Shown: positions 3,395 through 58,102 of the stretch, one piece after another
Position numbering within the stretch: position 1 is the stretch's first letter
How the letters are laid out: each line of letters starts with the position of its first letter
Assembly: GCA_040901965.1 (NCBI GenBank)
Contig: JBBDYB010000004.1
Coordinates: 4,495 to 68,494, forward strand
Length of the DNA stretch: 64,000 bases
Source of the DNA: Gemmatimonadales bacterium
GTDB lineage: Bacteria; Gemmatimonadota; Gemmatimonadetes; Gemmatimonadales; GWC2-71-9
Direction: 5' to 3'
Notes under the pieces: generated by a model
Databases searched by the model: none
What the model was told of the DNA's origin: nothing
What the model saw: only the letters and a program-made list of their open reading frames with translations
Translations under genes and position numbers: made by a program

Positions 3395-3480
3395 GCCCGG
3401 GTGGCGAAACTGGTAGACGCAAGGGACTTAAAATCCCTTGGGAGGCGACTCCCATGCAGGTTCGAGTCCTGCTCCGGGCA
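3395..3480 (+). tRNA. tRNA-Leu, anticodon UAA, class II with long variable arm, no encoded CCA
   Basis: Hand-folded cloverleaf. Acceptor GCCCGGG/TCCGGGC, anticodon stem AGGGA/TCCCT with loop CTTAAAA, long variable arm GGGAGGCGACTCCC, T arm GCAGG-TTCGAGT-CCTGC. Confidence 0.9.
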
Positions 3481-3583
3481 TCGGGCCACACGCTAGGAAT
3501 TAAGTCTCATGGGATTAAGCCTCTTGCCGAAGGCCGGTTCTTGCAGCAACATGGGGCAGCCACCCCTTCCTGGAGGCACGCAT

Positions 3584-6500
3584 ATGAACCGCACAACCAT
3601 CGTGTGGTCTACTCTCTCAGTCGCACTCGCGCTGAGTCTCGCCGCTCCACCCGCCGCTGCGCAGGGAACCGCCAGCGTGACGGGCCGGGTGGTGGACTCG
3701 ATCACGGCGCAACCCGTTGCCGGCGCGCGCGTCACCATGCTCGGTTCCACGGCCGGCGCACTCACCGATCGCGAGGGGCGGTACCTGCTGCAGGGCCTGG
3801 CGCCCGGAACCGTCACGCTGCGCGCGCAGCGCATCGGGTTCGCAGCGCGAGACCGGCAAGTGACGCTGACGGAAGGCGAGACTGCGACGGCGGACTTCGT
3901 CCTTCGGGCCGCCGCCACGGTGTTGTCGGACGTCGTGGTCACCGGGTACGGCAGCGACACGCGGGCTAATCTCAGCACGTCGGTGTCGTCGGTCAGCGCC
4001 GCGGAGATTCAGAGCACGCCGCTGGCCGGCGTGGACGGCGCGATCCAAGGCAGGGCCGCCGGCGTGCAGGTCGTCCAGAACGCCGGCAACCCCGGCGTGG
4101 GCATGACCGTGCGTATCCGCGGATCCGCGTCCATCTCGGCCTCGAACCAGCCGCTGTACGTGATCGACGGCATCCCGATGCTGCGCGATGACTTCTCACA
4201 GCTCGGCGTGGGCGGTCAGGACCTGACGGCCGTGACCGGCATCAACCCCGACGAGATTGAGACGGTCGACATCCTCAAGGACGCGGCGGCGGCGGCCATC
4301 TACGGCTCCCGCGGCTCGAACGGCGTCGTCATGATCACGACCAAGCGGGGCCGGGTGGGGACCACCCGCTTCACATTCAACGCCTACACAGGCTCGCAGG
4401 GTGTCCCGACGGGCAATCGCTGGGACCTGATGAACGCCAACGAGTACATCACGTACATGAATGAAGCGGCGTCCAACGACGCATACGGGCCGTTCTATTT
4501 CGGCGATCCCGACACCATCGGCGTCGGCACGGATTGGCAGTCGGCCGTCTTCCGCAGCACGCCGGTCACAAACGTCACCGTCGGCATCACGGGCGGCAGC
4601 GACCGCGTGCAGTACTACGTCTCGGGGTCGCGGTTCCTCCAGAACGGCGTAGTGATCGGCTCCGGATACCATCGCGAGGCGGGACGGGTCAATGTCGATC
4701 TCACGGCCTCCGAGAAGCTCCGGTTCCGCAGCTCGCTCTCGATCGCGCGCGAGCAGCACGACCGCATCGAGAACGACAACAGCATCGCGGGAGTCGTGAC
4801 CAACGCGATCGCCAACCAGCCGTGGATGAGCCTGCGGCGTTCCGATGGCAGCTTCACCACGACGGACGATGGGCTCGAGTACGAGAATCCGCTCGCCATC
4901 GCGAGCTACGACATCACCCAGTCGCGCGGCCTGCGCGCGCTCGGCAGCCTCGAGGCGAACTACACGCTGAGGCCGGATGTGACGCTCAACGGCCGCTTCG
5001 GCATGGACATCTTGAACCTCCGCGATCTGCGCTGGTACTCGCCGAACGTCGGCGGCTCGTACGGCGAGAGCGTGGGAGGCGAATCCATCATCGGCAACAA
5101 CACCCCCACGCGGTATGTGGTGGAGGGGTTCGCCGACTTCCATCCCCGCATTGGGCCGACCGCGTCGCTCTCGGTGACCGGCGGCGCCAGCGCGGAGTGG
5201 AATTCCTCGGAGCTCGACTACCTGGATGGCATCGGCTTCGCCGGCGATCAGTTCCAGTATCCGGGGAACGCGGCGACCGTCGTGGCCTACGACGGCGACT
5301 GGACGGGGCACAACCTGGTGTCGTTCTTCACGCGCGCCAACGCCACGTTCCGCGATCGCTATCTCGTCACGGCCAGCCTGCGCGCCGACGGTTCGTCCCG
5401 GTTCGGTAGCAACAACCGCTGGGGCACCTTCCCGGCGATGTCGGTCGGTTGGAAAGTCACCGAGGAGCCGTTCGCGCGGAGCTTGGCGCGCCGGGGCGAC
5501 CTGAAGCTGCGCGGCAGCTACGGCGTCACCGGCAACCAGGACCTGAACGACAACTTCGCCCCGCTGTCGCGGTTCGCGCGGGCCAACTACGCCGACGTGG
5601 CCGGGTTTGCGCAGAACAGCTTCGGCAACCCGGACCTCCAGTGGGAGCGGACCCGCGAGTACAACGTCGGCTTCGACCTCACGATCTTCGGCGGCCGCGC
5701 CACCATCATCGGCGACTGGTACAAGAAGATCACCGACAACCTGCTCTTGAACCGCCCGATCACCTCCACGAGCGGCCTGACCAGCGCAACGGAGAACATC
5801 GGCAGCTCGCAGAACCGCGGCTTAGAGCTCACGCTCAATGCGATTCCGCTGCAACCCTCGAGTCCCGAGGGCCTGCGGTGGTCAACGGACTTCAACATCT
5901 CGTGGAACCGCAACGAGGTGACCAAGCTGTTCCAGAACGAGCCCTTCAGCGTCGGCCTGTACAGCACCAGCCGCGTGGAGGTGGGGCAGCCGCTGTCGGC
6001 CTTCTACACGCTGCGCTTCCTGGGCGTCGATCCGGCGACCGGCGATGCCATCTTCGACGACATCAACGCCGACGGCTCGATCGACGCGGCCGACCGCGTC
6101 TTCATCGGCAGCCCGCATCCCAAGTTTTGGGGCGGCCTGACGAACACGCTCTCGTGGAAGAATTTCGACCTGCGGTCGTTCGTGCAGTTCACGCAGGGTC
6201 ACATGATCTTCAACGCGATCGGCGTGTTCGCGAATGACGGCGGGTACTACCACGACAACAAGTTTCGGCGGCTGCTCGACCGCTGGCAGAACCCCGGCGA
6301 CGTGACGAACGAGCCGCGGGCCAGCTACGACGGCACGTCCGGCGCCGACCTGATCTCCAGCCGCCACTTCGAGGACGGCTCCTACGTCCGGCTGCAGGAC
6401 GTCACGCTCAGCTATCGGCTGCCGCCGCAGTGGGCGGCGGCGCTGCGCATGGCCGACTCGCGGCTGTACGTGTCCGGGCGCAACCTGCACACCTGGACGC

Positions 6501-6625
6501 AGTACTCCGGCTACTCGCCGGACGTAAACAGCAACGGGTCGAACTCGAACACGGCGCTATCGACGGAGTTCTATGCCTATCCGCTCGCCCGCACGATCAT
6601 GGTCGGCATCAGCGGCGCATTCTGA
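3584..6625 (+). CDS. SusC/RagA-family TonB-linked outer membrane receptor
   Basis: ATG at 3584 is preceded by GGAGG. Signal peptide, then a carboxypeptidase-regulatory-like domain (VTGRVVDSITAQPVAGARVTM) and a plug motif NQPLYVIDGIPM. About 1000 aa beta-barrel ending ...GISGAF. Followed directly by a SusD-like gene. Confidence 0.9.
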   Translation: MNRTTIVWSTLSVALALSLAAPPAAAQGTASVTGRVVDSITAQPVAGARVTMLGSTAGALTDREGRYLLQGLAPGTVTLRAQRIGFAARDRQVTLTEGETATADFVLRAAATVLSDVVVTGYGSDTRANLSTSVSSVSAAEIQSTPLAGVDGAIQGRAAGVQVVQNAGNPGVGMTVRIRGSASISASNQPLYVIDGIPMLRDDFSQLGVGGQDLTAVTGINPDEIETVDILKDAAAAAIYGSRGSNGVVMITTKRGRVGTTRFTFNAYTGSQGVPTGNRWDLMNANEYITYMNEAASNDAYGPFYFGDPDTIGVGTDWQSAVFRSTPVTNVTVGITGGSDRVQYYVSGSRFLQNGVVIGSGYHREAGRVNVDLTASEKLRFRSSLSIAREQHDRIENDNSIAGVVTNAIANQPWMSLRRSDGSFTTTDDGLEYENPLAIASYDITQSRGLRALGSLEANYTLRPDVTLNGRFGMDILNLRDLRWYSPNVGGSYGESVGGESIIGNNTPTRYVVEGFADFHPRIGPTASLSVTGGASAEWNSSELDYLDGIGFAGDQFQYPGNAATVVAYDGDWTGHNLVSFFTRANATFRDRYLVTASLRADGSSRFGSNNRWGTFPAMSVGWKVTEEPFARSLARRGDLKLRGSYGVTGNQDLNDNFAPLSRFARANYADVAGFAQNSFGNPDLQWERTREYNVGFDLTIFGGRATIIGDWYKKITDNLLLNRPITSTSGLTSATENIGSSQNRGLELTLNAIPLQPSSPEGLRWSTDFNISWNRNEVTKLFQNEPFSVGLYSTSRVEVGQPLSAFYTLRFLGVDPATGDAIFDDINADGSIDAADRVFIGSPHPKFWGGLTNTLSWKNFDLRSFVQFTQGHMIFNAIGVFANDGGYYHDNKFRRLLDRWQNPGDVTNEPRASYDGTSGADLISSRHFEDGSYVRLQDVTLSYRLPPQWAAALRMADSRLYVSGRNLHTWTQYSGYSPDVNSNGSNSNTALSTEFYAYPLARTIMVGISGAF

Positions 6626-49176: not shown

Positions 49177-49997
49177 CCACGCCTGTCCTCTGCTACCACC
49201 GCATCGGCGGCCCGCTCGAGCTTGGCGTCACTCGCGTGGGCCGCTCGGTGTTTGCCCGCCAAATGACGGCGCTGGCGCGCGCGGGCTGGAAAACGTTGGC
49301 ATTAGACGAATTCACGAGACCTGATGACGTTGTAGGGGCACGGCATGCCGTGCCCCTACATGACGGGGTCCCGCCCCGCCAATTCCTTTTGACATTCGAC
49401 GACGGCTACGCCTCGCTGGCCGAGCATGCCTACCCGGTGCTGGCGGATCTGGGATTCACGGCCACGACGTTTCTGATCACCGACTTTGTCGGGAAGACCA
49501 ACGGTTGGGATATGCGCTACACCTGGGACCGGTTGCCCCACCTGTCCTGGCCGGCAATCGAGCGCTGGCGGGCGCGCGGCTTCGATTTCGGCTCGCACGG
49601 CGCCACCCACCGCCGGCTCACCTGGCTGTCAGACGCCGATATCGGGACTGAGTTGTCCCGCTCCCGCGCAGCGCTCACGACCCGGCTGGGCCCGGAGGCC
49701 GGCCGTGCCCTCGCCTACCCGTTCGGGGCGGTGGACGCGCGAGTCGCCGGGCTGGCGCGCGGGGCCGGCTACGAGCTGGGCTTCGGAGGAGTGCGGGGCA
49801 ACGGGGATCGGCTGAACTTCCCGCGGGTGCCGGTTTACTCCTGGGACGTGGGCAACGTCCCGCTGGGTCTCCGAGATGATGCGCTCGGTGCGGTCGGGAA
49901 GGTGGTCGCGCACATGGCCAATCGGTGCGCCGTGGGGACCTCGATAATGCTCAGACAAAGAAGCGCGCGGCCACGGGAATCAGCTGCGGATGCTTGA
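49173..49997 (+). CDS. Polysaccharide deacetylase (NodB-homology) family protein
   Basis: GTGA overlap with the previous gene. LLTFDDGY motif and downstream H..H-type region [10 protein letters not shown]. Confidence 0.7.
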
Positions 49998-51126
49998 TGA
50001 GCGCATGCGCGAAGATCCGCCCGAGCGACCGCTTCTGCTGTGGAATCCTGTTGACCGTCCGCGCCAGCCCATTGAAGAACGAGTCATCGAGAGCCTCGAG
50101 CGCCTGCTTGATGCGATAGTACTTGAGGTGATCGTCGCCGAGGAGATCCATCCAGGCCTTGTGGTAGCCTGACAGCCGCCGTTCGCTCGTATCGCCGGCG
50201 CGGATCGCCGCCGCCGCGGTGCACCCCGCCAGCCGGCCCGCCTTCATGGCGTTGACGATCCCGCCGCCCGACAGCGGATTCATCATGTGGGCCGCGTCGC
50301 CCGCGATCATCACCCCGTCCGTGTAGGTCTTCTTGACCGTCGTATGGACGATCACGCCGCCCACGGTGTATCCGGTTCGCGCGGCGGTCGGATAGCGGCG
50401 GCCGACCCAGGCGTCGAGATACTGGCGCGCGTTGCGGCCGTCCGTCTTGAGCGCGACGAGGCCGAGGCCGACATTCGCCACGCCCACGCTCTTGGGAAAG
50501 ATCCAGGCGTAGCCGCCGGGTGCGATGGTGTCGCCGAACTGGAGGTAGATCGCGTCCGGGTCGCAGTCGATGCCCTGGAGCACGTATTGCGCGCACGATT
50601 CCATGTCGCGCGACGGCACACGGGTATCGAGCCCGGCCCAGCGGCCCACCATCGCCTCGACGCCGTCGGCGCCGATCACGACGCGCGCCCGATACGTCTC
50701 CTCGGTACCACGTTGCTTCACGCGCACCTGCCAGCGATCGTCACCGTTGCGCGCCATCGCGGTGGCTTCGGTGCCCACCAACACCTCCGCGCCGGCGGCC
50801 GCCGCCTGCGCGGCGAGATGCGCGTCGAACCGGGTGCGGTCGAGCACCCAGCCCACGTCGCGCTCGGCGACTTTGACCTCGGTATCGTCGGGGGCGAGGA
50901 AAATGACGCGCGTGATCTTGCGGGCGGCCCAGTCCGCGCCATCGGGGTTGGCAAACTCGCGCAGCCCCGCATCCCCGACCCCTTCCGCGCAGCGGACGGG
51001 TGACCCAACTGCCCGGTCACGTTCCAACAGGGCGACATCGAGCTCGGGGGCGGCCTGTTTGGCCTGCCACGCCGCTAGCGCGCCGGCCGGTCCCGCGCCG
51101 ATGACCAGGATGTCGATGTCACGCAT
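49951..51126 (-). CDS. FAD-dependent oxidoreductase, geranylgeranyl-reductase / FixC-like family
   Basis: ATG at 51126 gives MRDIDILVIGAGPAGALAA (FAD Rossmann). GDAAHMMNPLSGGGI motif. Confidence 0.75.
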   Translation of the reverse strand: MRDIDILVIGAGPAGALAAWQAKQAAPELDVALLERDRAVGSPVRCAEGVGDAGLREFANPDGADWAARKITRVIFLAPDDTEVKVAERDVGWVLDRTRFDAHLAAQAAAAGAEVLVGTEATAMARNGDDRWQVRVKQRGTEETYRARVVIGADGVEAMVGRWAGLDTRVPSRDMESCAQYVLQGIDCDPDAIYLQFGDTIAPGGYAWIFPKSVGVANVGLGLVALKTDGRNARQYLDAWVGRRYPTAARTGYTVGGVIVHTTVKKTYTDGVMIAGDAAHMMNPLSGGGIVNAMKAGRLAGCTAAAAIRAGDTSERRLSGYHKAWMDLLGDDHLKYYRIKQALEALDDSFFNGLARTVNRIPQQKRSLGRIFAHALIKHPQLIPVAARFFV

Positions 51127-51322
51127 AGGCCACCATCGCGAGGGCGCCGACGGGGCAGGGGGCAACGCACTTCTCGCAGCCAGTGCACGTCCCCCGGTCC
51201 ACCGTGAGGACGTTCAACTCCAGGTGGATGGCTTCGGGGGGGCACAGCGGGAGGCACAGACCGCACCGGTCGCATACGGCGAGGTCTACCACGGCAATTG
51301 TGTCGGGCGTCACGCGACGCAT
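51119..51322 (-). CDS. 2x[4Fe-4S] ferredoxin (67 aa)
   Basis: CDRCGLCLPLCP and CTGCEKCVAPCP motifs. Start taken at MRRVTPDTIAVVDLA (51322). Overlaps the oxidoreductase start by 8 nt. Confidence 0.7.
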   Translation of the reverse strand: MRRVTPDTIAVVDLAVCDRCGLCLPLCPPEAIHLELNVLTVDRGTCTGCEKCVAPCPVGALAMVAYA

Positions 51323-51390
51323 GGGCGGAAGGGTAGCCGAACCTGGGAGGACCGTCAACTTGAAAATGGGTGCCGGAAGCCTGGCGAACG
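51277..51390 (+). repeat. Direct repeat copy A: ferredoxin 5' end, shortened intergenic region and a 12-codon mreB stub
   Basis: CGGCGAGGTCTACCACGGCAATTGTGTCGGGCGTCACGCGACGCATGGGCGGAAGGGTAGCCG...AAAATGGGTGCCGGAAGCCTGGCGAACG aligns with 56006..56224. Confidence 0.8.
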
Positions 51391-51725
51391 TAAGTCGGCG
51401 TTGATCTGGGTCCGCTCCCACAATCGTCTTCGTCCACGGCGGGCGGATCATGGTGACGGACTATGCGTGTCGAGCCTCGCGCGTTCCCCTGGTGATCGGT
51501 GTTGCAGGACCACGCCGCTGCACGGAATCCGAATATGTGTCGAGCGCAGCTATGACGACGAAAGTAGCCAGAGGGTTAATCCTCTTTGGGGGGGATCGGC
51601 TAGTCCTTCTGGTCAGTACAAGCTAATCCACTCGCCTCGTCAGTATGCGTCCACCCGGTTACGTCCACAGCTGGACGTTCCGAAGCGGATAGCAAGCCAT
51701 AGTCCTTTGTTCGGCGAGGTGACAC

Positions 51726-52889
51726 ATGATCTACCAAAGGAAAGCTGGTCGGCGGGTGGCGGTCGTGGGGTGCATCGTCCTGCTAGCTGCGTGCGCGGAA
51801 CGTGGTGGCAAGGTCGTGGGTCCCGATGCACCTCGGTCCACGCGCGTTCAAACAGATCTCAGCTGGTTATCGCGGTCTATCGCGGTCGGCATGGGAGAAC
51901 CGGAGGTGAGGGCTGCAGTACGCGACGCGATGCGAGCATCACGCCTGACAGAGCATAAGCTGTCCTTGCAGCAGTTCATGACCACCGCGGAGGGATCGTT
52001 ATTGCTCCGTGCCGCTGCCGCTGTCCAGGAGACCAGTGCGCAGGAGCTGTCAGAGGCCATTGCCAGGCTGCCCGAGCTAGATTTCTATGTTCCGCGTCGC
52101 GAACATCGGCTCACTTGGCGTGCCAGCCGTGACTACATGGTTGTGGCAACGATGAACGCCGACCCGCGGAAGACCGGCTTCGATGCTGATGGTCGGTCGG
52201 TGGTGCTCGACATCTCTTTGCCTGAAACGCCCGGGCCAGCCGTGCTTCTGCTCCATCCGGCTGAGACGAAGAGTCGACGCGTCGCTCCCCAGCCCGATCG
52301 CGCCGGTCTGACCATCCAGGACCCTGACGATGGCGAACTCAGTGGAACCTTCGTATTTACGGATGCCGAGGGGAGGATCACGGTGGTCGAACTCGCTGAC
52401 CTTCTCTTGCACGCACAACCCTTCCGGCCTATGCTGGACCATTGCGATCCTACGGCCATCAACTGCGAGCATACGACAGATACAGGGGGCGGTCCCCCTC
52501 CCGATGCGACGTATCTCACCTACATCGAAACGCATGGGATCTGTGATTGGGCCGACTGCGGCCAGGGGAACGAATTCGAGTTCTTTGCCCAATCCTGGGA
52601 CGGATCGACCGGGCACCTGCGGATAGAGAATATCCCCAGCACCACAGCGCAACTGCGGTTCGACCTTCTCATAACTTCGGAACCACTCGATGACCAGTCA
52701 GTGATTCAGATATCAGTAAAGGAGACAGATGGGGCCTTCGGCGATGACCAATTCTATCTCGCTGAAGTCGGTTATTGTGGACCTATTCCTCTCGGAGCCA
52801 GCTTTAACGGCGCAGGCTGGTTGCTGACGGAGCAGTCTTGCGACGCGGCTGCAAACAAGACGCTTGGCGTCAAGTTCGAGTGGCAATAG
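51726..52889 (+). CDS. Hypothetical lipoprotein, Cys-rich C-terminal domain (387 aa)
   Basis: GAGGTG lies before the ATG. Lipobox IVLLAAC. No family recognised. Confidence 0.6.
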   Translation: MIYQRKAGRRVAVVGCIVLLAACAERGGKVVGPDAPRSTRVQTDLSWLSRSIAVGMGEPEVRAAVRDAMRASRLTEHKLSLQQFMTTAEGSLLLRAAAAVQETSAQELSEAIARLPELDFYVPRREHRLTWRASRDYMVVATMNADPRKTGFDADGRSVVLDISLPETPGPAVLLLHPAETKSRRVAPQPDRAGLTIQDPDDGELSGTFVFTDAEGRITVVELADLLLHAQPFRPMLDHCDPTAINCEHTTDTGGGPPPDATYLTYIETHGICDWADCGQGNEFEFFAQSWDGSTGHLRIENIPSTTAQLRFDLLITSEPLDDQSVIQISVKETDGAFGDDQFYLAEVGYCGPIPLGASFNGAGWLLTEQSCDAAANKTLGVKFEWQ

Positions 52890-52904
52890 GTTGATTGAAA
52901 CGCA

Positions 52905-52930
52905 CCGGCCGCTTGCTCTTTGGCGGCCGG
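52905..52930 (+). terminator. Hairpin after the 387-aa lipoprotein gene
   Basis: CCGGCCGC pairs with GCGGCCGG, 10-nt loop, followed by ACGTTCATTT. Confidence 0.55.
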
Positions 52931-52965
52931 ACGTTCATTTCCTCTGCCGAGGCTTTCCGGTAAAG

Positions 52966-53694
52966 GTGATATCAGCGCGGCGTCTGGCTTGGGACGGGTT
53001 GATACTCCTGCTTGCGACGTCTGCTTGCCAGGCGGACCTTAGCAACCCTGAGAACGTCCCCATTCCGGTCATACAGGTGCTTCTCGTCACTGGATCACCG
53101 GTGCAAACGGCATGGATCGAGTGGCGCGTGCCTGCCGATTCAGCCTTTGGACCCGAGGTCCGGCCGGTGGATCCGGCCAGTGTTCAGCTTTCTCTGATCT
53201 TGCCTGACAGCAGCGCAATCCCCTTTGCAGCGGTCAGCGGCATTCCGGGCCGCTTCGATGCCCAGACCAATGTGTTCCCAGCGCTTCGCTATCGCTTGGC
53301 CGGTGCCATAACAGGCGTCACAGTCACTGGCGAAACCACAGTCCCTGGCATGATCGACCTGCGTGAGCCGGCCCAGGACACCCTGGTATTCACGGACGTC
53401 TGCACGCTGCTGTGTACACTGCCATATCGGTGGTACGCCCCCGACGCGGCGGCGTACTGGTACTTCCATTCCGAGAATGGGGCTTTGCCGTTCAGCGAAG
53501 GGGGCTCAACCCGCGACACGTCGGGAGTTATTCACCTCCAGCGACGACAGGGCATTTCGCATGTTACCGTACTCGCTCTCGACCCCCACGCAGCAGCCTT
53601 CCTGACGGCGACCGATCCCAACAGCAGTGTGAGCGGGGTCTTCGGTCTTTTTGGCGCTGCGTCGCGGGCCGAGCGCTGGATCAGTTGGCAGTAA
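52966..53694 (+). CDS. Hypothetical lipoprotein (possibly DUF4249-like partner of the receptor)
   Basis: GTG at 52966 gives VISARRLAWDGLILLLATSAC (lipobox). Beta-rich. TAATG overlap with the receptor gene. The DUF4249 assignment is tentative. Confidence 0.5.
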   Translation: MISARRLAWDGLILLLATSACQADLSNPENVPIPVIQVLLVTGSPVQTAWIEWRVPADSAFGPEVRPVDPASVQLSLILPDSSAIPFAAVSGIPGRFDAQTNVFPALRYRLAGAITGVTVTGETTVPGMIDLREPAQDTLVFTDVCTLLCTLPYRWYAPDAAAYWYFHSENGALPFSEGGSTRDTSGVIHLQRRQGISHVTVLALDPHAAAFLTATDPNSSVSGVFGLFGAASRAERWISWQ

Positions 53695-55943
53695 TGTCGA
53701 GGTCCGGACCGTTTGCGGTGATAGTCGCCCTCGTCGCGGTCGGTCGGGCTCCCGCTCAGTCTGCGATTCGGGGCGACATCGTGGATTCGGCTACCGGGGT
53801 CCCTCTCCAGGGAGTGCTAGTCACGGCTCGTAGAGCCAAGATTGCAGCAATTAGTGATCGTCTGGGGCACTTCGTGATATGGATACCGACCTTCCCCGAA
53901 ACACTCGCTGTCGCGCTTATCGGCCGGACCCCGACGAATGTCTTCCTAAACGATCTTCCCGCTCAGGCGTTGACTATCCGTCTAGCGTCGCACGCTATCA
54001 CTCTTTCCGATGTAATAGTTACCGCACCCTCGTATGGAGCTCGACCGCCGGACGATGTGGGAAGTTGGCGCGTGCCGGTTGCTGCCGCTCGGAATGTTCC
54101 AGCAGCCGTGGAACCGGATGTATTTCGCTCCCTCACGTTGATTCCGGCTGTCAGTTTCTCCACGCCCCTTTCGGCACGTCCGATCATCCGAGGCTATGAT
54201 GCGGCAGAAGGGAGTGTGCGGATCGACGGTTTCGAAGTTGTGAATCTCTATCACATCGGGCGCGTGTTCGCGGCGTTTCCGGCTGGAGCAGCAAGCGAGG
54301 TGGCTGTCGCCGCGGCACCACAGGGCGTGGCGAACGGCGGGACGCTATCGGGGATTCTCGATATCACCGGCCGCGTCGGTGAACCAGGGCGCGCAGGCGG
54401 CGGGGCTGACCTGAGCCTCGCATCGGCGACGGTGTGGGCAGGCGGTGGCGGCCGTGATCTTCAGTGGTTCGGAACCATTCGCGCAGTCCATCTGTCACTC
54501 CTCAATAGCTTGAGCCAAGCGCGAGTCCCCTACAATTTCCAGGACTTCTACGCGAGCGCCCTGATCTCATCGAAGGGTCGGCCAGCCGTAAAAATCACTG
54601 CGTTTGCTTCGCAGGATGAGCTGTTCGATCAAGATATCGGCGCGGGAATGGACTGGAGTAATATCCTCGTCGGCACGCGTTGGCAGGCTCTGCAGCGGGG
54701 ACGCGTCGCGCTCAGTATCTGGGGCAATGTCAATCGATTCCAAGAAGACGTGGTGGATTTGCCCGCCCGGTTTTCTCGTATCAATGTCCGAAACCGTTTC
54801 GAGCGCGCGGGGATGGGAGTGGACATTCTCGCGCGTGGCCCGGCCTTCCAGATCGCAGGTGGTCTCTCGGGGTTCCGGCGGGTCATCGGCAATCGGATCG
54901 TGCCGGTGGGGGGCGACGACTTCCCAGCTACGGATGCGCGCTACAACCGCGCTGAATTGGGTGCTTTTGGAGAGCTCACAGTGGGTGTGGGCCGTGCATC
55001 CCTCCAGACTGGGATACGGCTCGATGCGGCGGGTCAAGTTCATGTTTTGCAGCCGCGTGCCCGGTTAGCGATGTCGCTCGGACCTCATACATCCGTTGGC
55101 ATAGCCGTCGGTCGGACCGCGCGTTTGTTTCATCTGGTCTCAGATCCTCAGTCCGAGCCCGATCTCGCGTTTTACGACTTTTGGCTGAATGCGGGAACGG
55201 CGGGTGTCCCAATCCCGCGAGTGGATCATGCGACGTTTGATTTCGACGTTGGCCGAGGCTCGATAGCGGCTCGGCTGTCGCTTTTCGCGTCCTTTGGACG
55301 TGGACTGGTGGAATTGCGTCCGTCCACGGATCAAAGAGGTGAGGTCGAGACCCCGTTTCGCTACGGCAATGGCAGAAGCAGAGGCTTGGAGGTTCAGCTC
55401 GCTCTCCGTGGGAGCACTCATCGCCAGCGCGCGCTCTCGCTAGCATATGTCTACAGTGTGGCAGATCGCAACTGGGGTACGGCGTGGACCCCGTGGACGT
55501 TAGACCGCCGGCATATGCTGCGGGTGATCGGACGGACGGAAATCCGGGAGCATTGGTCGCTCGCCGCCGTGCTGGAGGCGACCAGCGGCGCTCCTTTGAC
55601 TCTGGTCGATGGCGTGGTTTTGGTTGGCGAGCCTGGTGACACGGGTACTCTCATGCGGTGGCCATTCGGCCGGCCAGCGTACATCTATGGAACCGAGAAT
55701 GGAGCAAGGAGTGCGGGCACGGCGCGCGTGGACCTGAGCGGCACCTTTGCGTTCACTGGCCCTTGGAACACGCGCATGAATCTCGGCCTATCCATTGTGA
55801 ACGCCGGATTCGGTCCGGTAGCCCCCCTTCGGCCATCCAGGCCCGGGTTCGATCCGGGTCCTAGCCCGCAGGGCCGCGTGAGATACGAGCGGCTTTTCGA
55901 TCTTCCAGCCGTGCCGAGTGTGACATTTCGGGTCGAGTTCTAA
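53694..55943 (+). CDS. TonB-dependent receptor with N-terminal carboxypeptidase-regulatory-like domain
   Basis: Signal peptide, IRGDIVDSATGVPLQGVLVT, plug-like PIIRGYDAAEGSVRIDGFEVVN, and a long barrel ending ...VTFRVEF. Confidence 0.8.
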   Translation: MSRSGPFAVIVALVAVGRAPAQSAIRGDIVDSATGVPLQGVLVTARRAKIAAISDRLGHFVIWIPTFPETLAVALIGRTPTNVFLNDLPAQALTIRLASHAITLSDVIVTAPSYGARPPDDVGSWRVPVAAARNVPAAVEPDVFRSLTLIPAVSFSTPLSARPIIRGYDAAEGSVRIDGFEVVNLYHIGRVFAAFPAGAASEVAVAAAPQGVANGGTLSGILDITGRVGEPGRAGGGADLSLASATVWAGGGGRDLQWFGTIRAVHLSLLNSLSQARVPYNFQDFYASALISSKGRPAVKITAFASQDELFDQDIGAGMDWSNILVGTRWQALQRGRVALSIWGNVNRFQEDVVDLPARFSRINVRNRFERAGMGVDILARGPAFQIAGGLSGFRRVIGNRIVPVGGDDFPATDARYNRAELGAFGELTVGVGRASLQTGIRLDAAGQVHVLQPRARLAMSLGPHTSVGIAVGRTARLFHLVSDPQSEPDLAFYDFWLNAGTAGVPIPRVDHATFDFDVGRGSIAARLSLFASFGRGLVELRPSTDQRGEVETPFRYGNGRSRGLEVQLALRGSTHRQRALSLAYVYSVADRNWGTAWTPWTLDRRHMLRVIGRTEIREHWSLAAVLEATSGAPLTLVDGVVLVGEPGDTGTLMRWPFGRPAYIYGTENGARSAGTARVDLSGTFAFTGPWNTRMNLGLSIVNAGFGPVAPLRPSRPGFDPGPSPQGRVRYERLFDLPAVPSVTFRVEF

Positions 55944-56005
55944 AGACACACTCCCATATGATCCGGTGATGTCCGGTACCGCGGCGTCGGCGGCCCGGGC
56001 TGCGG

Positions 56006-56224
56006 CGGCGAGGTCTACGACGGCAATTGTGTCGGGCGTCACGCGACGCATGCGCGGAACGGTAGCCGCAGCGCCGAGAAGCGTCAAGCTTCATCCTTGC
56101 TTGAGGTTACGCATTTCATTACCTTCAGCCGTCCGAGCAGCGCCCGCCTCACTCTTTTTACCAGACGACCACGTGCCGCCACGCTGGCTGAATTTCAAAA
56201 TGGGTGCCTGGAGCCCGGCGAACG
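56006..56224 (+). repeat. Direct repeat copy B: 15-codon ferredoxin stub, full intergenic region and the true mreB 5' end
   Basis: CGGCGAGGTCTACGACGGCAATTGTGTCGGGCGTCACGCGACGCATGCGCGGAACGGTAGCCG...(about 105 extra nt)...AAAATGGGTGCCTGGAGCCCGGCGAACG. Confidence 0.8.
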
Positions 56225-57216
56225 AAATCGCCGTGGACCTCGGTACGGCCAACACACTCGTCTATGTTCGCGGCGAAGGGATCGTGTTGAACGAGCCCTC
56301 GGTCGTGGCGATCGAAAAAGCCACCGGCAAGGTGAAGGGCATCGGTCTCGAGGCGAAGCGGATGCTGGGCCGCACGCCGGACGGCGTCCTCGCGGTCCGG
56401 CCGCTGAAAGACGGCGTCATCGCCGACTTCGACGTCACCGAGAAGATGCTGCGCTTCTTCCTCAAGACCATCATCGATCGCCATCTCTTCCGCGTGCGTC
56501 CCAAAGTCATCGTCTGCGTCCCCAGCGGCATCACCGAAGTGGAGAAGCGCGCGGTGCGTGACTCCGCGCAGTCGGCGGGCGCGAAGGAAGTGTACATGGT
56601 GGCCGAGCCGATGGCGGCCGCGATCGGCGTCGGGCTGCCGGTTGAGACGCCGACGGGCAACATGGTGATCGACATCGGCGGCGGGACCACCGAGATCGCC
56701 GTCATCGCCTTGTCGGGCATCGTGTCCGACACGTCCATCCGCACCGGCGGTGACGAGCTCGATCAAGCGATCGTCCAGTTCATGCGCAAAAACTACAATC
56801 TGCTGATCGGCGAGCCGACGGCGGAGCAGATCAAGATCCAGATCGGATCCGCGGCCCCCATGGGCGAAGAGCGGGAGATGGAAGTGAAAGGCCGCGACCT
56901 GGTGTCCGGCATCCCCAAGATCGTGCGCGTGCACTCGAGCGAGATTCGCGAGGCGGTGCAGGAGCCGATCCAGCAGATCGTGGACGCCGTGCGCCGGGCG
57001 CTGGAGATTACGCCGCCCGAGCTCGCGTCGGACATCGTGGATCGCGGCATCGTGATGACGGGCGGCGGCGCGCTGATCCGCGGGCTCGACCTGCTCCTGC
57101 AGCAGGAAACCGGCCTGCCGATTCATCTGGACGAAGACCCCATGACGTGCGTGGTCCGTGGGGCGGGGCGGATCCTGGACTCCCCCGAGAAATACCGCAA
57201 CGTCCTGACCACCTAG
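56200..57216 (+). CDS. mreB: Rod shape-determining protein MreB
   Basis: IAVDLGTANTLVYV, actin-like ATPase motifs DIGGGTTE and GIVMTGGGALI. Confidence 0.95.
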   Translation: MGAWSPANEIAVDLGTANTLVYVRGEGIVLNEPSVVAIEKATGKVKGIGLEAKRMLGRTPDGVLAVRPLKDGVIADFDVTEKMLRFFLKTIIDRHLFRVRPKVIVCVPSGITEVEKRAVRDSAQSAGAKEVYMVAEPMAAAIGVGLPVETPTGNMVIDIGGGTTEIAVIALSGIVSDTSIRTGGDELDQAIVQFMRKNYNLLIGEPTAEQIKIQIGSAAPMGEEREMEVKGRDLVSGIPKIVRVHSSEIREAVQEPIQQIVDAVRRALEITPPELASDIVDRGIVMTGGGALIRGLDLLLQQETGLPIHLDEDPMTCVVRGAGRILDSPEKYRNVLTT

Positions 57217-57220
57217 CGGT

Positions 57221-58102
57221 ATGGCGATCGGAACTGATCGCTACGCGTCGCGCGCCGACACCCTGCTCTTCATCGCCTGTGTGGGGTTGTCCGTGGCGGC
57301 GCTGAGCCTCCCCGACCAGTGGCGGGATCCACTCGCCCAGGGGCTGCGGCAGACCGTGCTGGCGCCTTTCCTCTTCCTCCAGCGCCAAACCGAATTGCTC
57401 GCCGCCGCCCGCGCCCGCTACGACGCCGTCGTCGCGCAGCGCGATTCTGTCGCGCTCGCCGCGACCTTCCTCCCCGAGCTGCGCAGCGAAAACACCCGGT
57501 TGCGCGGCCTCCTCGGTCTCAGTGCGCGGTTGGCGGGAGGCTACGTATCGGCCGAGATCCTGCACCAACCCGAGCCCACGAATCCGCTCTCGTTCGTGGT
57601 CTCGGCGGGACGCCGGCAAGGAGTGCGGCCGCTCTCCGCCGTGGTCAGCCCGGAAGGACTCGTGGGCCTGGTGGCGGCCGTGGATGAGCGCACGAGCGTG
57701 GTGTTCAGCTGGGCGCACCCGGAGTTCCGCGCCAGCGCCATCGCCAGGGACGGCAGCGTGGTCGGCATCGCCGCTCCGCACGGCGCGGAGGGGCCGGGCG
57801 TCTGGCTGTTGGAGCTGCAGGGCGTGCTCTACCGCCAGCAGGTGCCCGCGGGCACCGTGATTGCGACCTCGGGGCTGGGGGGGGTGTTCCCGCGCGGCAT
57901 TCCGATCGGAATCGTGGTCGGCCCGGCCGGCGAAGCGAAGGGATGGGGGCGCACCTATCTGGTGCGGCCGACCGTGCACCCCGCCGCGTTGTCGCACGTG
58001 ATGATTCTCACCTCTCCGCGGCCTGCCCGGAGTGATCTCCGGGGGGCGTTTACCGTTCCCGACAGTGCCCTCCCCCCTCCCAGCGAATCGCCTCGTCCAT
58101 GA
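57221..58102 (+). CDS. mreC: Rod shape-determining protein MreC
   Basis: Position after mreB. N-terminal TM, coiled-coil segment, and beta-rich C-terminal domain with ...GLVG.V... and ...TSGLGGVFPRGIPIG. Confidence 0.85.
   Translation: MAIGTDRYASRADTLLFIACVGLSVAALSLPDQWRDPLAQGLRQTVLAPFLFLQRQTELLAAARARYDAVVAQRDSVALAATFLPELRSENTRLRGLLGLSARLAGGYVSAEILHQPEPTNPLSFVVSAGRRQGVRPLSAVVSPEGLVGLVAAVDERTSVVFSWAHPEFRASAIARDGSVVGIAAPHGAEGPGVWLLELQGVLYRQQVPAGTVIATSGLGGVFPRGIPIGIVVGPAGEAKGWGRTYLVRPTVHPAALSHVMILTSPRPARSDLRGAFTVPDSALPPPSESPRP

Follow-up and report, generated by a model that had tools for sequence, protein, structure and literature searches.

How three genes of unusual composition came to lie between a ferredoxin gene and mreB, with pieces of both gene starts repeated at their ends and no recombinase gene among them, is the question raised by a locus in a Gemmatimonadales bacterium from soil. 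The locus is part of a 64,000-nt stretch of contig JBBDYB010000004.1 (called the window here; coordinates without a prefix refer to it), and the block in question occupies 51340-56005. A sequence-only reading of this DNA had proposed a Campbell-type, single-crossover integration of a circular element, or else a long target duplication. The data presented here show that the block is an insertion, and the explanation that accounts for it best is that it is probably a horizontally acquired islet without mobility genes, placed by a RecA-type (Campbell-like) insertion-duplication and later exchanged by homologous recombination in its flanks. The topology of Campbell-type integration and the homeologous nature of the left repeat copy, both part of the sequence-only reading, are retained in this explanation, but a discrete mobile element and a single event are not.

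The first part of the answer is given by the empty site. Contig L082 (run DRR857857) belongs to the same species, being 97-98% identical and encoding an identical MreB protein, and has no insertion. Positions 1-1072 of L082 match window 50268-51339 at 98.0% and positions 1010-2929 match window 56006-57925 at 97.2%, with mismatches evenly distributed along both flanks. The two window flanks overlap in L082 by exactly 63 nt, which limits the duplicated native DNA to 51277-51339 and 56006-56068; the stretch 51340-56005 is extra in its entirety, and no native DNA is missing. Ferredoxin and mreB are likewise divergent neighbours, about 148 nt apart and with no cargo between them, in at least 12 related species genomes. 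The genome comparison comprised 80 loci. Divergent adjacency holds for the close relatives that keep synteny, and none of the 80 has a homologue of the three cargo genes (open reading frames ORF1, ORF2 and ORF3) at 10 kb or less from mreB. A metagenome scan with a 30-mer from the 5' end of the ferredoxin gene returned 73 soil contigs, about 70 of them informative, all of which were empty and none of which carried cargo. L090, L097 and L105 were left out of these counts as near-palindromes (ferredoxin-mreB-mreC and then the same reversed) with low-identity, frameshifted matches, and they are probably long-read or assembly fold-back artefacts. The block is an insertion, since ferredoxin and mreB adjoin without the three genes in L082 and in some 80 genomes and metagenome contigs of relatives, as the sequence-only reading had expected.

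The second part of the answer lies in the repeats at its ends, which consist of the following pieces.

51277..51339, unstranded: repeat copy A, native; the first 15 ferredoxin codons with 1 nt more, and the 17 nt upstream of them
51340..51365, unstranded: homeologous intergenic remnant (IG'); identity to native DNA falls sharply at 51339/51340
51366..51456, plus strand: decayed stub of the mreB 5' end, a frameshifted pseudogene of about 30 codons in which codon 12 is followed by a stop
55944..56005, unstranded: 62-nt spacer after ORF3, meeting native DNA at the junction 56005/56006
56006..56068, unstranded: repeat copy B, ferredoxin stub; ATG at 56051..56049, 15 native codons and 17 nt upstream
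56052..56199, unstranded: complete native intergenic region of 148 nt, inside the 97.2% match of L082:1010-2929 to window 56006-57925

The direct repeat that had been read from the sequence was recovered in alignments of 51277-51358 with 56006-56087 (82 nt, 88% identical) and of 51357-51393 with 56191-56227 (37 nt, 84% identical). The similarity is far above chance: exact direct repeats in 50500-57000 reach a length of 33 nt, whereas the longest in 200 dinucleotide-preserving shuffles averaged 12.6 nt and never exceeded 16 nt. This perfect core is 51291-51323 in copy A, and both copies align to the single stretch L082:1010-1072. The difference of roughly 10% that the sequence-only reading assigned to the copies is very unevenly distributed: identity is 60/63 over 51277-51339, 12/19 in the 19 nt that follow and about 78% once the mreB stub is reached. 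The homology of copy A had also been thought to end at 51393, but a gapped local alignment of the stub with 56200-56291 continues to about 51456 (69 of 89 positions identical, plus 5 gapped). IG' and the mreB stub align in register with their native counterparts, the intergenic region and the start of mreB. The intergenic region of copy A is 43 nt long versus 148 nt in the native state, and the gap of about 105 nt noted earlier is present; the deletion begins right after the ferredoxin -35 hexamer and takes out the conserved mreB promoter core, the most conserved part of the intergenic region.

The stubs read as had been described (copy A, MGAGSLANVSRR-stop; copy B, MRRVTPDTIAVVDLA...), and the two scars look very different in age, the 63 nt on the ferredoxin side being native-like and the left remnant apparently old. 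In the mreB stub the differences fall on codon positions 1/2/3 in a ratio of about 8/5/7 (a manual count on the alignment), and because they are spread evenly over codon positions and the stub is frameshifted, they indicate long neutral decay rather than divergence while functional. When the unconstrained positions of the left side are pooled, 27/108 (about 25%) have diverged, with indels and the deletion in addition. Between copy A and the ferredoxin stub of copy B, 3/63 positions differ, and at all four variable positions the stub has a state that is also present in a functional ferredoxin allele. The divergence of the mreB stub against that of the 63-nt block gives a Fisher p of 0.0025. The ferredoxin stub is directed antisense into the 3' end of ORF3, and an open 88-aa read-through frame starting from it overlaps ORF3 by 156 nt. 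The 62-nt spacer resembles neither ferredoxin nor the 25-nt spacer of the second occupied allele described below, nor any of the 80 genome loci, and no close match to the stub, the spacer or the 5' leader of the islet was found among those loci. Microhomology at 56003-56008, around the junction 56005/56006, amounts to 3 nt (CGG) at most. Both inner junctions are confirmed independently by L081, a Logan unitig from SRR27977660 that is 100% identical to 51294-56049 and covers them; it stops within the 33-nt core on both sides, as is expected for a k = 31 graph.

What the duplication did to the promoters of the two flanking operons can be followed in the features below.

49951..51126, minus strand: GGR, a geranylgeranyl-reductase-family flavoprotein gene (Pfam GGR_cat and FAD_binding_3; NCBIfam TIGR02032 above cutoff)
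51119..51322, minus strand: intact 2x[4Fe-4S] ferredoxin gene, 67 aa (Pfam Fer4 and Fer4_21)
51330..51358, minus strand: predicted ferredoxin promoter of copy A, with -10 TACCCT at 51330-51335 and -35 TTGACG at 51353-51358
-10 at 56059-56064 and -35 at 56082-56087, minus strand: second, putative ferredoxin-type promoter, in copy B
-35 TTGCTT at 56097-56102 and -10 TACCTT at 56120-56125, plus strand: mreB promoter-like core, in copy B
56200..57216, plus strand: intact mreB, the core right flank (Pfam MreB_Mbl, 5.7e-144)

The true ATG of the ferredoxin gene is at 51322..51320, and the same 67-aa gene is called in L082, L083 and L084. The start of GGR, which is 98% identical to its counterpart in the empty-site contig L082, overlaps the ferredoxin stop codon; GGR is co-transcribed with the ferredoxin gene and belongs to the core left flank of the islet. 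To the right, mreB is the first gene of a cluster in the order mreB, mreC, mreD and a PBP2-like gene, and its protein is 100% identical in L082. The layout of the ferredoxin element in copy A, with a 17-nt spacer and 7 nt to the ATG, is a leaderless one. In a set of 67 unique intergenic regions, TTGACG-N17-TA(G/C)(G/C)CT-N7-ATG precedes the ferredoxin gene with exact spacing in 54 and with relaxed spacing in all 67, and TTGCTT-N17-TAnnTT precedes mreB on the plus strand in 65 of the 67. This conservation is the ground for reading both elements as putative promoters. A sigma-70 consensus scan returned nothing relevant, and a search of Rfam at E <= 1 over 50500-57000 for an RNA element in the duplicated region gave no match. 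The claim of a duplicated promoter region is true of the ferredoxin element, which is repeated together with 15 codons, but not of the mreB core, which is the very 105 nt absent from copy A; copy A keeps the ferredoxin element only and copy B keeps both. For the same reason the view that the insertion had cut the mreB operon off from part of its ancestral upstream context does not apply, as the complete 148-nt ancestral intergenic region is kept in copy B. The islet sits exactly between the two back-to-back promoter-like elements, that of the ferredoxin-GGR operon and that of the mreBCD operon. ORF1-3 probably cannot use the mreB promoter, because copy A lacks its core. In copy B, the orphan ferredoxin promoter, if it is one, and its 15-codon stub would point antisense into the last 156 nt of ORF3.

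The cargo itself differs from its surroundings. The block has a GC content of 60.8% versus 67.4% in the rest of the window, is the lowest-GC stretch (z = -5.3) and has a tetranucleotide distance of z = 9.8, so the lower GC that had been read from spot counts is borne out although its contrast had been overstated. GC at third codon positions (GC3) is 0.63-0.68 in the genes of the block versus 0.84-0.90 in GGR, ferredoxin, mreB, mreC and mreD. The features of the cargo are as follows.

51457..51725, plus strand: non-coding 5' leader of the islet, 93% identical to allele V (the second occupied allele)
51726..52889, plus strand: ORF1, a lipoprotein of 387 aa with lipobox LLAAC and a GC3 of 0.65; no Pfam family
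52905..52930, plus strand: GC-rich hairpin with a T-rich tail in the gap between ORF1 and ORF2; 9-bp stem with 8 GC pairs
52966..53694, plus strand: ORF2, a lipoprotein of 242 aa with two Ig/FN3-like beta-sandwich domains; the same gene is called in L081
53694..55943, plus strand: ORF3, 749 aa, an outer-membrane protein that resembles a TonB-dependent receptor and has a carboxypeptidase-regulatory-like domain at its N-terminus

The leader has no relative in the 80 genome loci and no Rfam match, and in its approximately 270 nt upstream of ORF1 no match to TTGnnn-N16-18-TAnnnT was found and no promoter was recognised. The hairpin looks terminator- or attenuator-like. ORF1 has 36 homologues, all of them in Gemmatimonadota-type contigs. 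Its AlphaFold2 model (mean predicted local distance difference test score, pLDDT, 84) has an alpha/beta domain followed by a C2-like beta-sandwich, with weak matches to C2 domains in a fold search; the model of ORF2 has a mean pLDDT of 81. Fold searches of both proteins against the PDB gave generic beta-sandwich matches (C2-like and Ig/FN3-like) and no specific function. The Pfam matches of ORF3 all lie below the gathering cutoffs given in brackets, with 17.2 bits (23.9) for Plug, 22.0 (27) for TonB_dep_Rec_b-barrel and 29.2 (32.2) for CarbopepD_reg_2, and many ORF3 homologues carry Plug, barrel and CarbopepD_reg_2 domains as precomputed matches. The nearest relatives of ORF3 are the allele V protein at 79% identity and a non-allelic protein at 64%; a protein identical to ORF3 exists in an NCBI metagenome-assembled genome. 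Because of its composition and domain content, the cassette would most likely be an outer-membrane uptake module with two accessory lipoproteins.

ORF1-ORF2-ORF3 form a conserved unit that also occurs at unrelated loci in other Gemmatimonadales, once beside xanthine-dehydrogenase-like genes and elsewhere between genes for a LuxR-type response regulator and a nucleotidyltransferase near serS. At these other loci (L087:837-4901, L088:5-3739 and L089:5025-10082) the cassette has a GC3 of 0.64-0.82 versus 0.83-0.90 in its neighbours, and it looks foreign, or atypical in codon usage, in every host. The LuxR-type response regulator that precedes the cassette in L089 has a low GC3 too. Flanking duplications were looked for at the other cassette loci and none were found, and the window contains no trace of the neighbours that the cassette has elsewhere (LuxR-type regulator, NTP_transf_4). 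The plasmid, phage and IMG/VR collections contain no relative of ORF1. Nothing here points to the discrete mobile element implied by the sequence-only reading, and the cargo amounts to an ordinary chromosomal cassette. Its statement that no integrase or transposase is present was borne out: no recombinase was found with Pfam in the three genes and the larger alternative-frame ORFs (six in the block and one in the 5' leader), or with NCBIfam in the three genes. No tRNA gene lies near the block, and the sole one in the window is 48 kb away. An integrase-bearing island was rejected on these grounds. A transposon or insertion sequence was rejected as well, as was a transposase-like reading of the proposed long target duplication, since there is no transposase, the ends of the block have no terminal inverted repeats, and a duplication of 63 to about 285 nt is too long for the target duplication of a transposition (2-15 bp). 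The tRNA gene mentioned, tRNA-Leu at 3395-3480, is followed by an ORF of 1038 aa (the two together at window 3395-6625), whose carboxypeptidase-regulatory-like N-terminus weakly matches the gene upstream of the L087 cassette (37.6% over 85 residues, E = 3e-10); both the ORF and the tRNA-Leu are unrelated to the islet.

Whether the structure dates from one event can be judged from allele V, which was found in L083, L084 and L085, three conspecific contigs from one other study with flanks 97-99% identical to the window. The left remnant of V reads GAACCTGGGAGGACCGTCAACTTGAAAATGGGT exactly as in the window, but its mreB stub has lost about 84 nt. On the right, V has 25 unrelated nt after the ORF3 stop, joined directly to the CGTCAAGC promoter core, and the ferredoxin stub is absent. 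Because the left scar is common to V, which has no ferredoxin stub, the structure would represent an old insertion plus later recombination and not one recent event; a single recent duplication in situ as the whole story was rejected, as the scars differ (p = 0.0025) and the left one is shared. Two side observations concern V itself. Its 25-nt spacer (L085:4591-4615) contains CTACCGTTCC, an inverted copy of the ferredoxin -10 region GGAACGGTAG, which may be a rearrangement scar or a chance match. At L085:349-1505, ORF1 is split by a frameshift near codon 232 (299 aa and 32 aa) and is intact in L084, so the split form is either a pseudogene variant or an assembly error.

Between the window allele (W) and V, identity is 93% in the leader, 99-100% in most of ORF1, 85-93% in ORF2 and 71-85% in ORF3. 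Synonymous divergence (dS) is 0.004 in the 5' part of ORF1, 0.32 in ORF2 and 0.91 in ORF3, where the ratio of nonsynonymous to synonymous divergence (dN/dS) is 0.125; the flanks have a dS of 0.04 against the empty-site L082, and comparisons between species give 0.6-1.0. Because the divergence of W and V is mosaic relative to the flanks, the locus would be an old polymorphism or introgression that homologous recombination has reshuffled. The flanks have patches of their own. Window 49206-49990, the 3' half of a polysaccharide-deacetylase gene, is 68-79% identical to L083 in contigs that are otherwise 98-100% identical, and this looks like a second, independent patch of homeologous recombination 1.3 kb left of the islet. 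In a qualitative comparison, conspecific identity goes from 100% to 68-79% and then to 92-100% within 5 kb. Within the right flank, mismatches to L082 cluster in mreC at 57307-57652 (dS 0.19 versus 0.04 in mreB), a further sign of mosaic recombination.

The course of events that would lead to this arrangement begins with a DNA fragment that carried the cassette beside a copy of the ferredoxin/mreB 5' region and circularised. The circle would have integrated by a single RecA-type crossover, giving a Campbell-like topology without any integrase. The outcome would be one working promoter for each essential flank, with ferredoxin served by copy A and mreB by the 148 nt of copy B, and a non-functional stub of the other gene at each end; the left scar would have decayed afterwards and would travel with the islet. 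Two histories both fit the unequal scars. Either about 285 nt, from ferredoxin codon 16 to mreB codon ~31, were duplicated in an old insertion that was followed by a recent re-integration of W into an empty site, or there was one old event, after which copy B was homogenised with empty-site chromosomes through its contiguous core flank while the remnant in copy A, isolated by the 105-nt deletion, was left to decay. At least three states (empty, allele V and allele W) would segregate in the species, shuffled via the conserved flanks and inside ORF1. RecA-type exchange needs uninterrupted identity of a few tens of nucleotides, and the 33-nt perfect match within the 60/63 block is long enough for it. 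Recombination within the 63-nt repeat, with its 33-nt core, should delete the islet in a RecA-dependent manner and restore a perfect empty site; V, which has no right-hand repeat, would not have this option of a clean loss. Four positions vary among the two window copies (W-A and W-B), the V copy (V-A) and L082, in a pattern compatible with several crossover positions.

Campbell-like RecA-dependent integration is favoured because the insert is flanked by a duplication of recipient DNA, both genes are intact and there is no recombinase, and because of the outcome of an experiment in E. coli in which linear DNA had one-sided homology. In that study 56 of 60 integrants contained duplications of 109-950 bp, produced by recircularisation and a single crossover, and the remaining 4, true homology-facilitated illegitimate events, gave deletions (PMC3240628). 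The islet shares with that system (PMC3240628) direct copies of one chromosomal segment around the insert, a single copy at the empty site, intact flanking genes and the lack of a site-specific recombinase; its duplication, 63 nt if the native-like part is taken and about 285 nt with the decayed parts, is in or near the experimental range. It differs in that it is natural and from an uncultured member of the Gemmatimonadales whereas the experiment used a plasmid construct, in that its homology spans two divergent gene starts with their promoters, and in that one copy is old or homeologous and has a 105-nt deletion. The circle, too, is only inferred here.

Several points weigh against this explanation. 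Neither a circular form nor a donor genome was found, nor any donor context for the receptor gene of the W type. Four variable positions in 63 nt are too few for the reciprocal chimerism of donor and recipient that a single crossover predicts. The first origin of a circle with about 285 nt of target between the cargo ends is left unexplained, and the unequal ages of the scars (p = 0.0025) require a second event or homogenising gene flow, either of which would have to be supposed. No route of DNA uptake, natural competence included, is known for the lineage. It should also be noted that the k = 31 unitig fits the integrated form as well as an empty site plus a circle, and that only the window assembly links the parts.

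Homology-facilitated illegitimate recombination, reportedly described by de Vries and Wackernagel in 2002 and by Prudhomme et al. in the same year (both as cited in PMC5361080), offers a way to do without a circle. Here the left end of a linear donor fragment, the ferredoxin side with IG', the mreB stub and the cargo, would have recombined homologously, and the right end of the fragment, after 56005, would have been joined to recipient ferredoxin codon 16, for example on a sister chromosome, which would make the 63-nt duplication. The left junction is indeed in homologous register and the right one is an abrupt switch from unrelated to native DNA, possibly with the CGG microhomology at 56003-56008 where the process calls for 3-10 bp, although 3 nt of this kind are trivial at 67% GC. 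The process has been applied to type VI secretion system (T6SS) effector displacement in Vibrio cholerae (PMC5361080), and the model proposed there for stub-leaving displacement resembles the islet in having one junction in register and the other abrupt, in leaving stubs without a mobile element, and in layering new cargo beside conserved anchor genes. However, such events usually delete recipient DNA, and here 63 nt are duplicated and none are missing; a two-point replacement on one duplex cannot yield a duplication, and in the E. coli experiment duplications came from recircularisation while the one-ended illegitimate events (4/60) gave deletions (PMC3240628). A linear fragment is accordingly regarded as an unlikely source of the islet. 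Doubtful to a somewhat greater degree is an origin in situ, in which foreign DNA would have been captured, by end-joining or replication template switching, either at the joint of a local tandem duplication from ferredoxin codon 16 to mreB codon ~31 (about 285 nt) or at a staggered double-strand break, everything else being later decay, deletion and gene flow. The sharp boundaries of both stubs, the fact that the duplicated parts sum to one contiguous native segment, and the promoter duplication that accompanies another insertion in the same gap (L006 and L011, below) are all in its favour. Yet the copies would have started out identical, and extra assumptions are needed to explain why the left one is about 25% diverged (27/108) when the ferredoxin stub has no private changes; no signature of end-joining such as filler or templated insertion was recognised. 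The product would be the same as that of the Campbell model, so the two are hardly separable by sequence.

The other two candidates are each very improbable. Phage 21 and e14 integrate at icd by means of an integrase and an att core, and the element carries a homeologous gene end. The islet could by analogy be the remnant of a site-specific integrative element that entered the ferredoxin 5' end with a replacement gene end and later lost its integrase, as is suggested by the perfect 33-nt direct repeat at both ends, within a gene 5' end, and by a cargo GC below that of the surroundings. The analogy extends to integration in a gene end, the gene being kept intact by the second end and a displaced stub remaining at the far junction, but in the islet two gene ends, on opposite strands, are duplicated and there are no integrase or phage genes. 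The search for an integrase, excisionase or transposase was negative, and the block, filled by its three genes, leaves no space for even a pseudogene; the larger alternative frames have no Pfam match and the neighbours are GGR, ferredoxin and mreBCD. The boundary of the repeat is the end of native homology and not a conserved att core, V has no right-hand repeat, the cassette occurs elsewhere without repeats and is missing from the phage, plasmid and IMG/VR collections, and no related integrase-bearing islet occupies the 33-nt site among about 150 loci examined. An assembly artefact or mixed population, in which reads of a strain with the empty site and of one with the islet (or of a free circle) were joined via the shared 33-63 nt, has to be considered since the source is a metagenome-assembled genome and since L081 ends inside the repeat on both sides and cannot phase the left and right variants. 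Against it, 51339/51340 and 56005/56006 are both inside this independently assembled unitig, the link from ferredoxin to ORF1 recurs in L083 and L084 and that from ORF3 to mreB in L085, all from other samples, and an insert collinear with both flanks is not expected of a chimera; standard assemblers span the repeat, because 63 nt is less than a read length.

The gap between ferredoxin and mreB has received other genes as well. In L006 and L011, two further Gemmatimonadales genomes, it holds a 1.9-kb gene resembling M28 peptidases, flanked by two diverged copies of the mreB promoter core (73% identical over about 45 nt, both starting CGTCAA), each anchored in native context.

L006:8140-8190 and L006:9890-9940: the two M28-flanking copies in L006
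L011:2281-2325 and L011:4045-4089: the two M28-flanking copies in L011

The left copy now stands before the peptidase gene. In a more distant relative (L050:4740-5593) the gap is 850 nt long and contains a minus-strand lipoprotein gene of 190 aa, with no repeats detected. The interval is thus empty or holds cassette W, cassette V, the M28 peptidase or the small lipoprotein, depending on the genome, and because of these different contents it acts as the kind of hotspot that Oliveira et al. 2017 (PMC5635113) describe, in which genes are inserted without any mobile element. It agrees with those hotspots in being one core-bounded interval with variable content and no mobility genes, in having mosaic flanks, and in a cargo of cell-envelope proteins, but a double crossover in the flanks leaves no duplication whereas the islet locus keeps the scars of the first placement (PMC5635113).

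It may further be that the gap between back-to-back promoters is a recurrent landing pad filtered by selection, each insertion-duplication copying a promoter. Three different cargos occupy the gap across the Gemmatimonadales and two of them still show duplicated promoter pieces, but this generalisation is speculative and on balance doubtful. If it were true, the 63-nt repeat could make the cassette RecA-excisable and produce on/off variation of a surface receptor in the population, and the receptor gene would be subject to antisense transcription from the orphan leaderless ferredoxin promoter of copy B.

The process proposed for the islet, RecA-type insertion-duplication, is already known, and neither a new mechanism nor a new protein machine is involved. 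What the locus adds concerns the first step. Most accessory genes of bacterial chromosomes lie in a few hotspots, many of them without a mobile element, and a double crossover in the flanks explains the turnover of such hotspots but not the arrival of the first gene. The ferredoxin/mreB locus preserves scars of that arrival in the stubs of both flanking genes, one old and one native-like, and with an empty and a second occupied allele in the same species it offers a natural, datable case of recombinase-free insertion-duplication beside an essential operon. It suggests that insertions between divergent promoters are tolerable if each operon keeps its own copy of its promoter, and that ordinary recombination is enough for a bacterium to acquire genes, and probably to lose them, with no mobile element involved.

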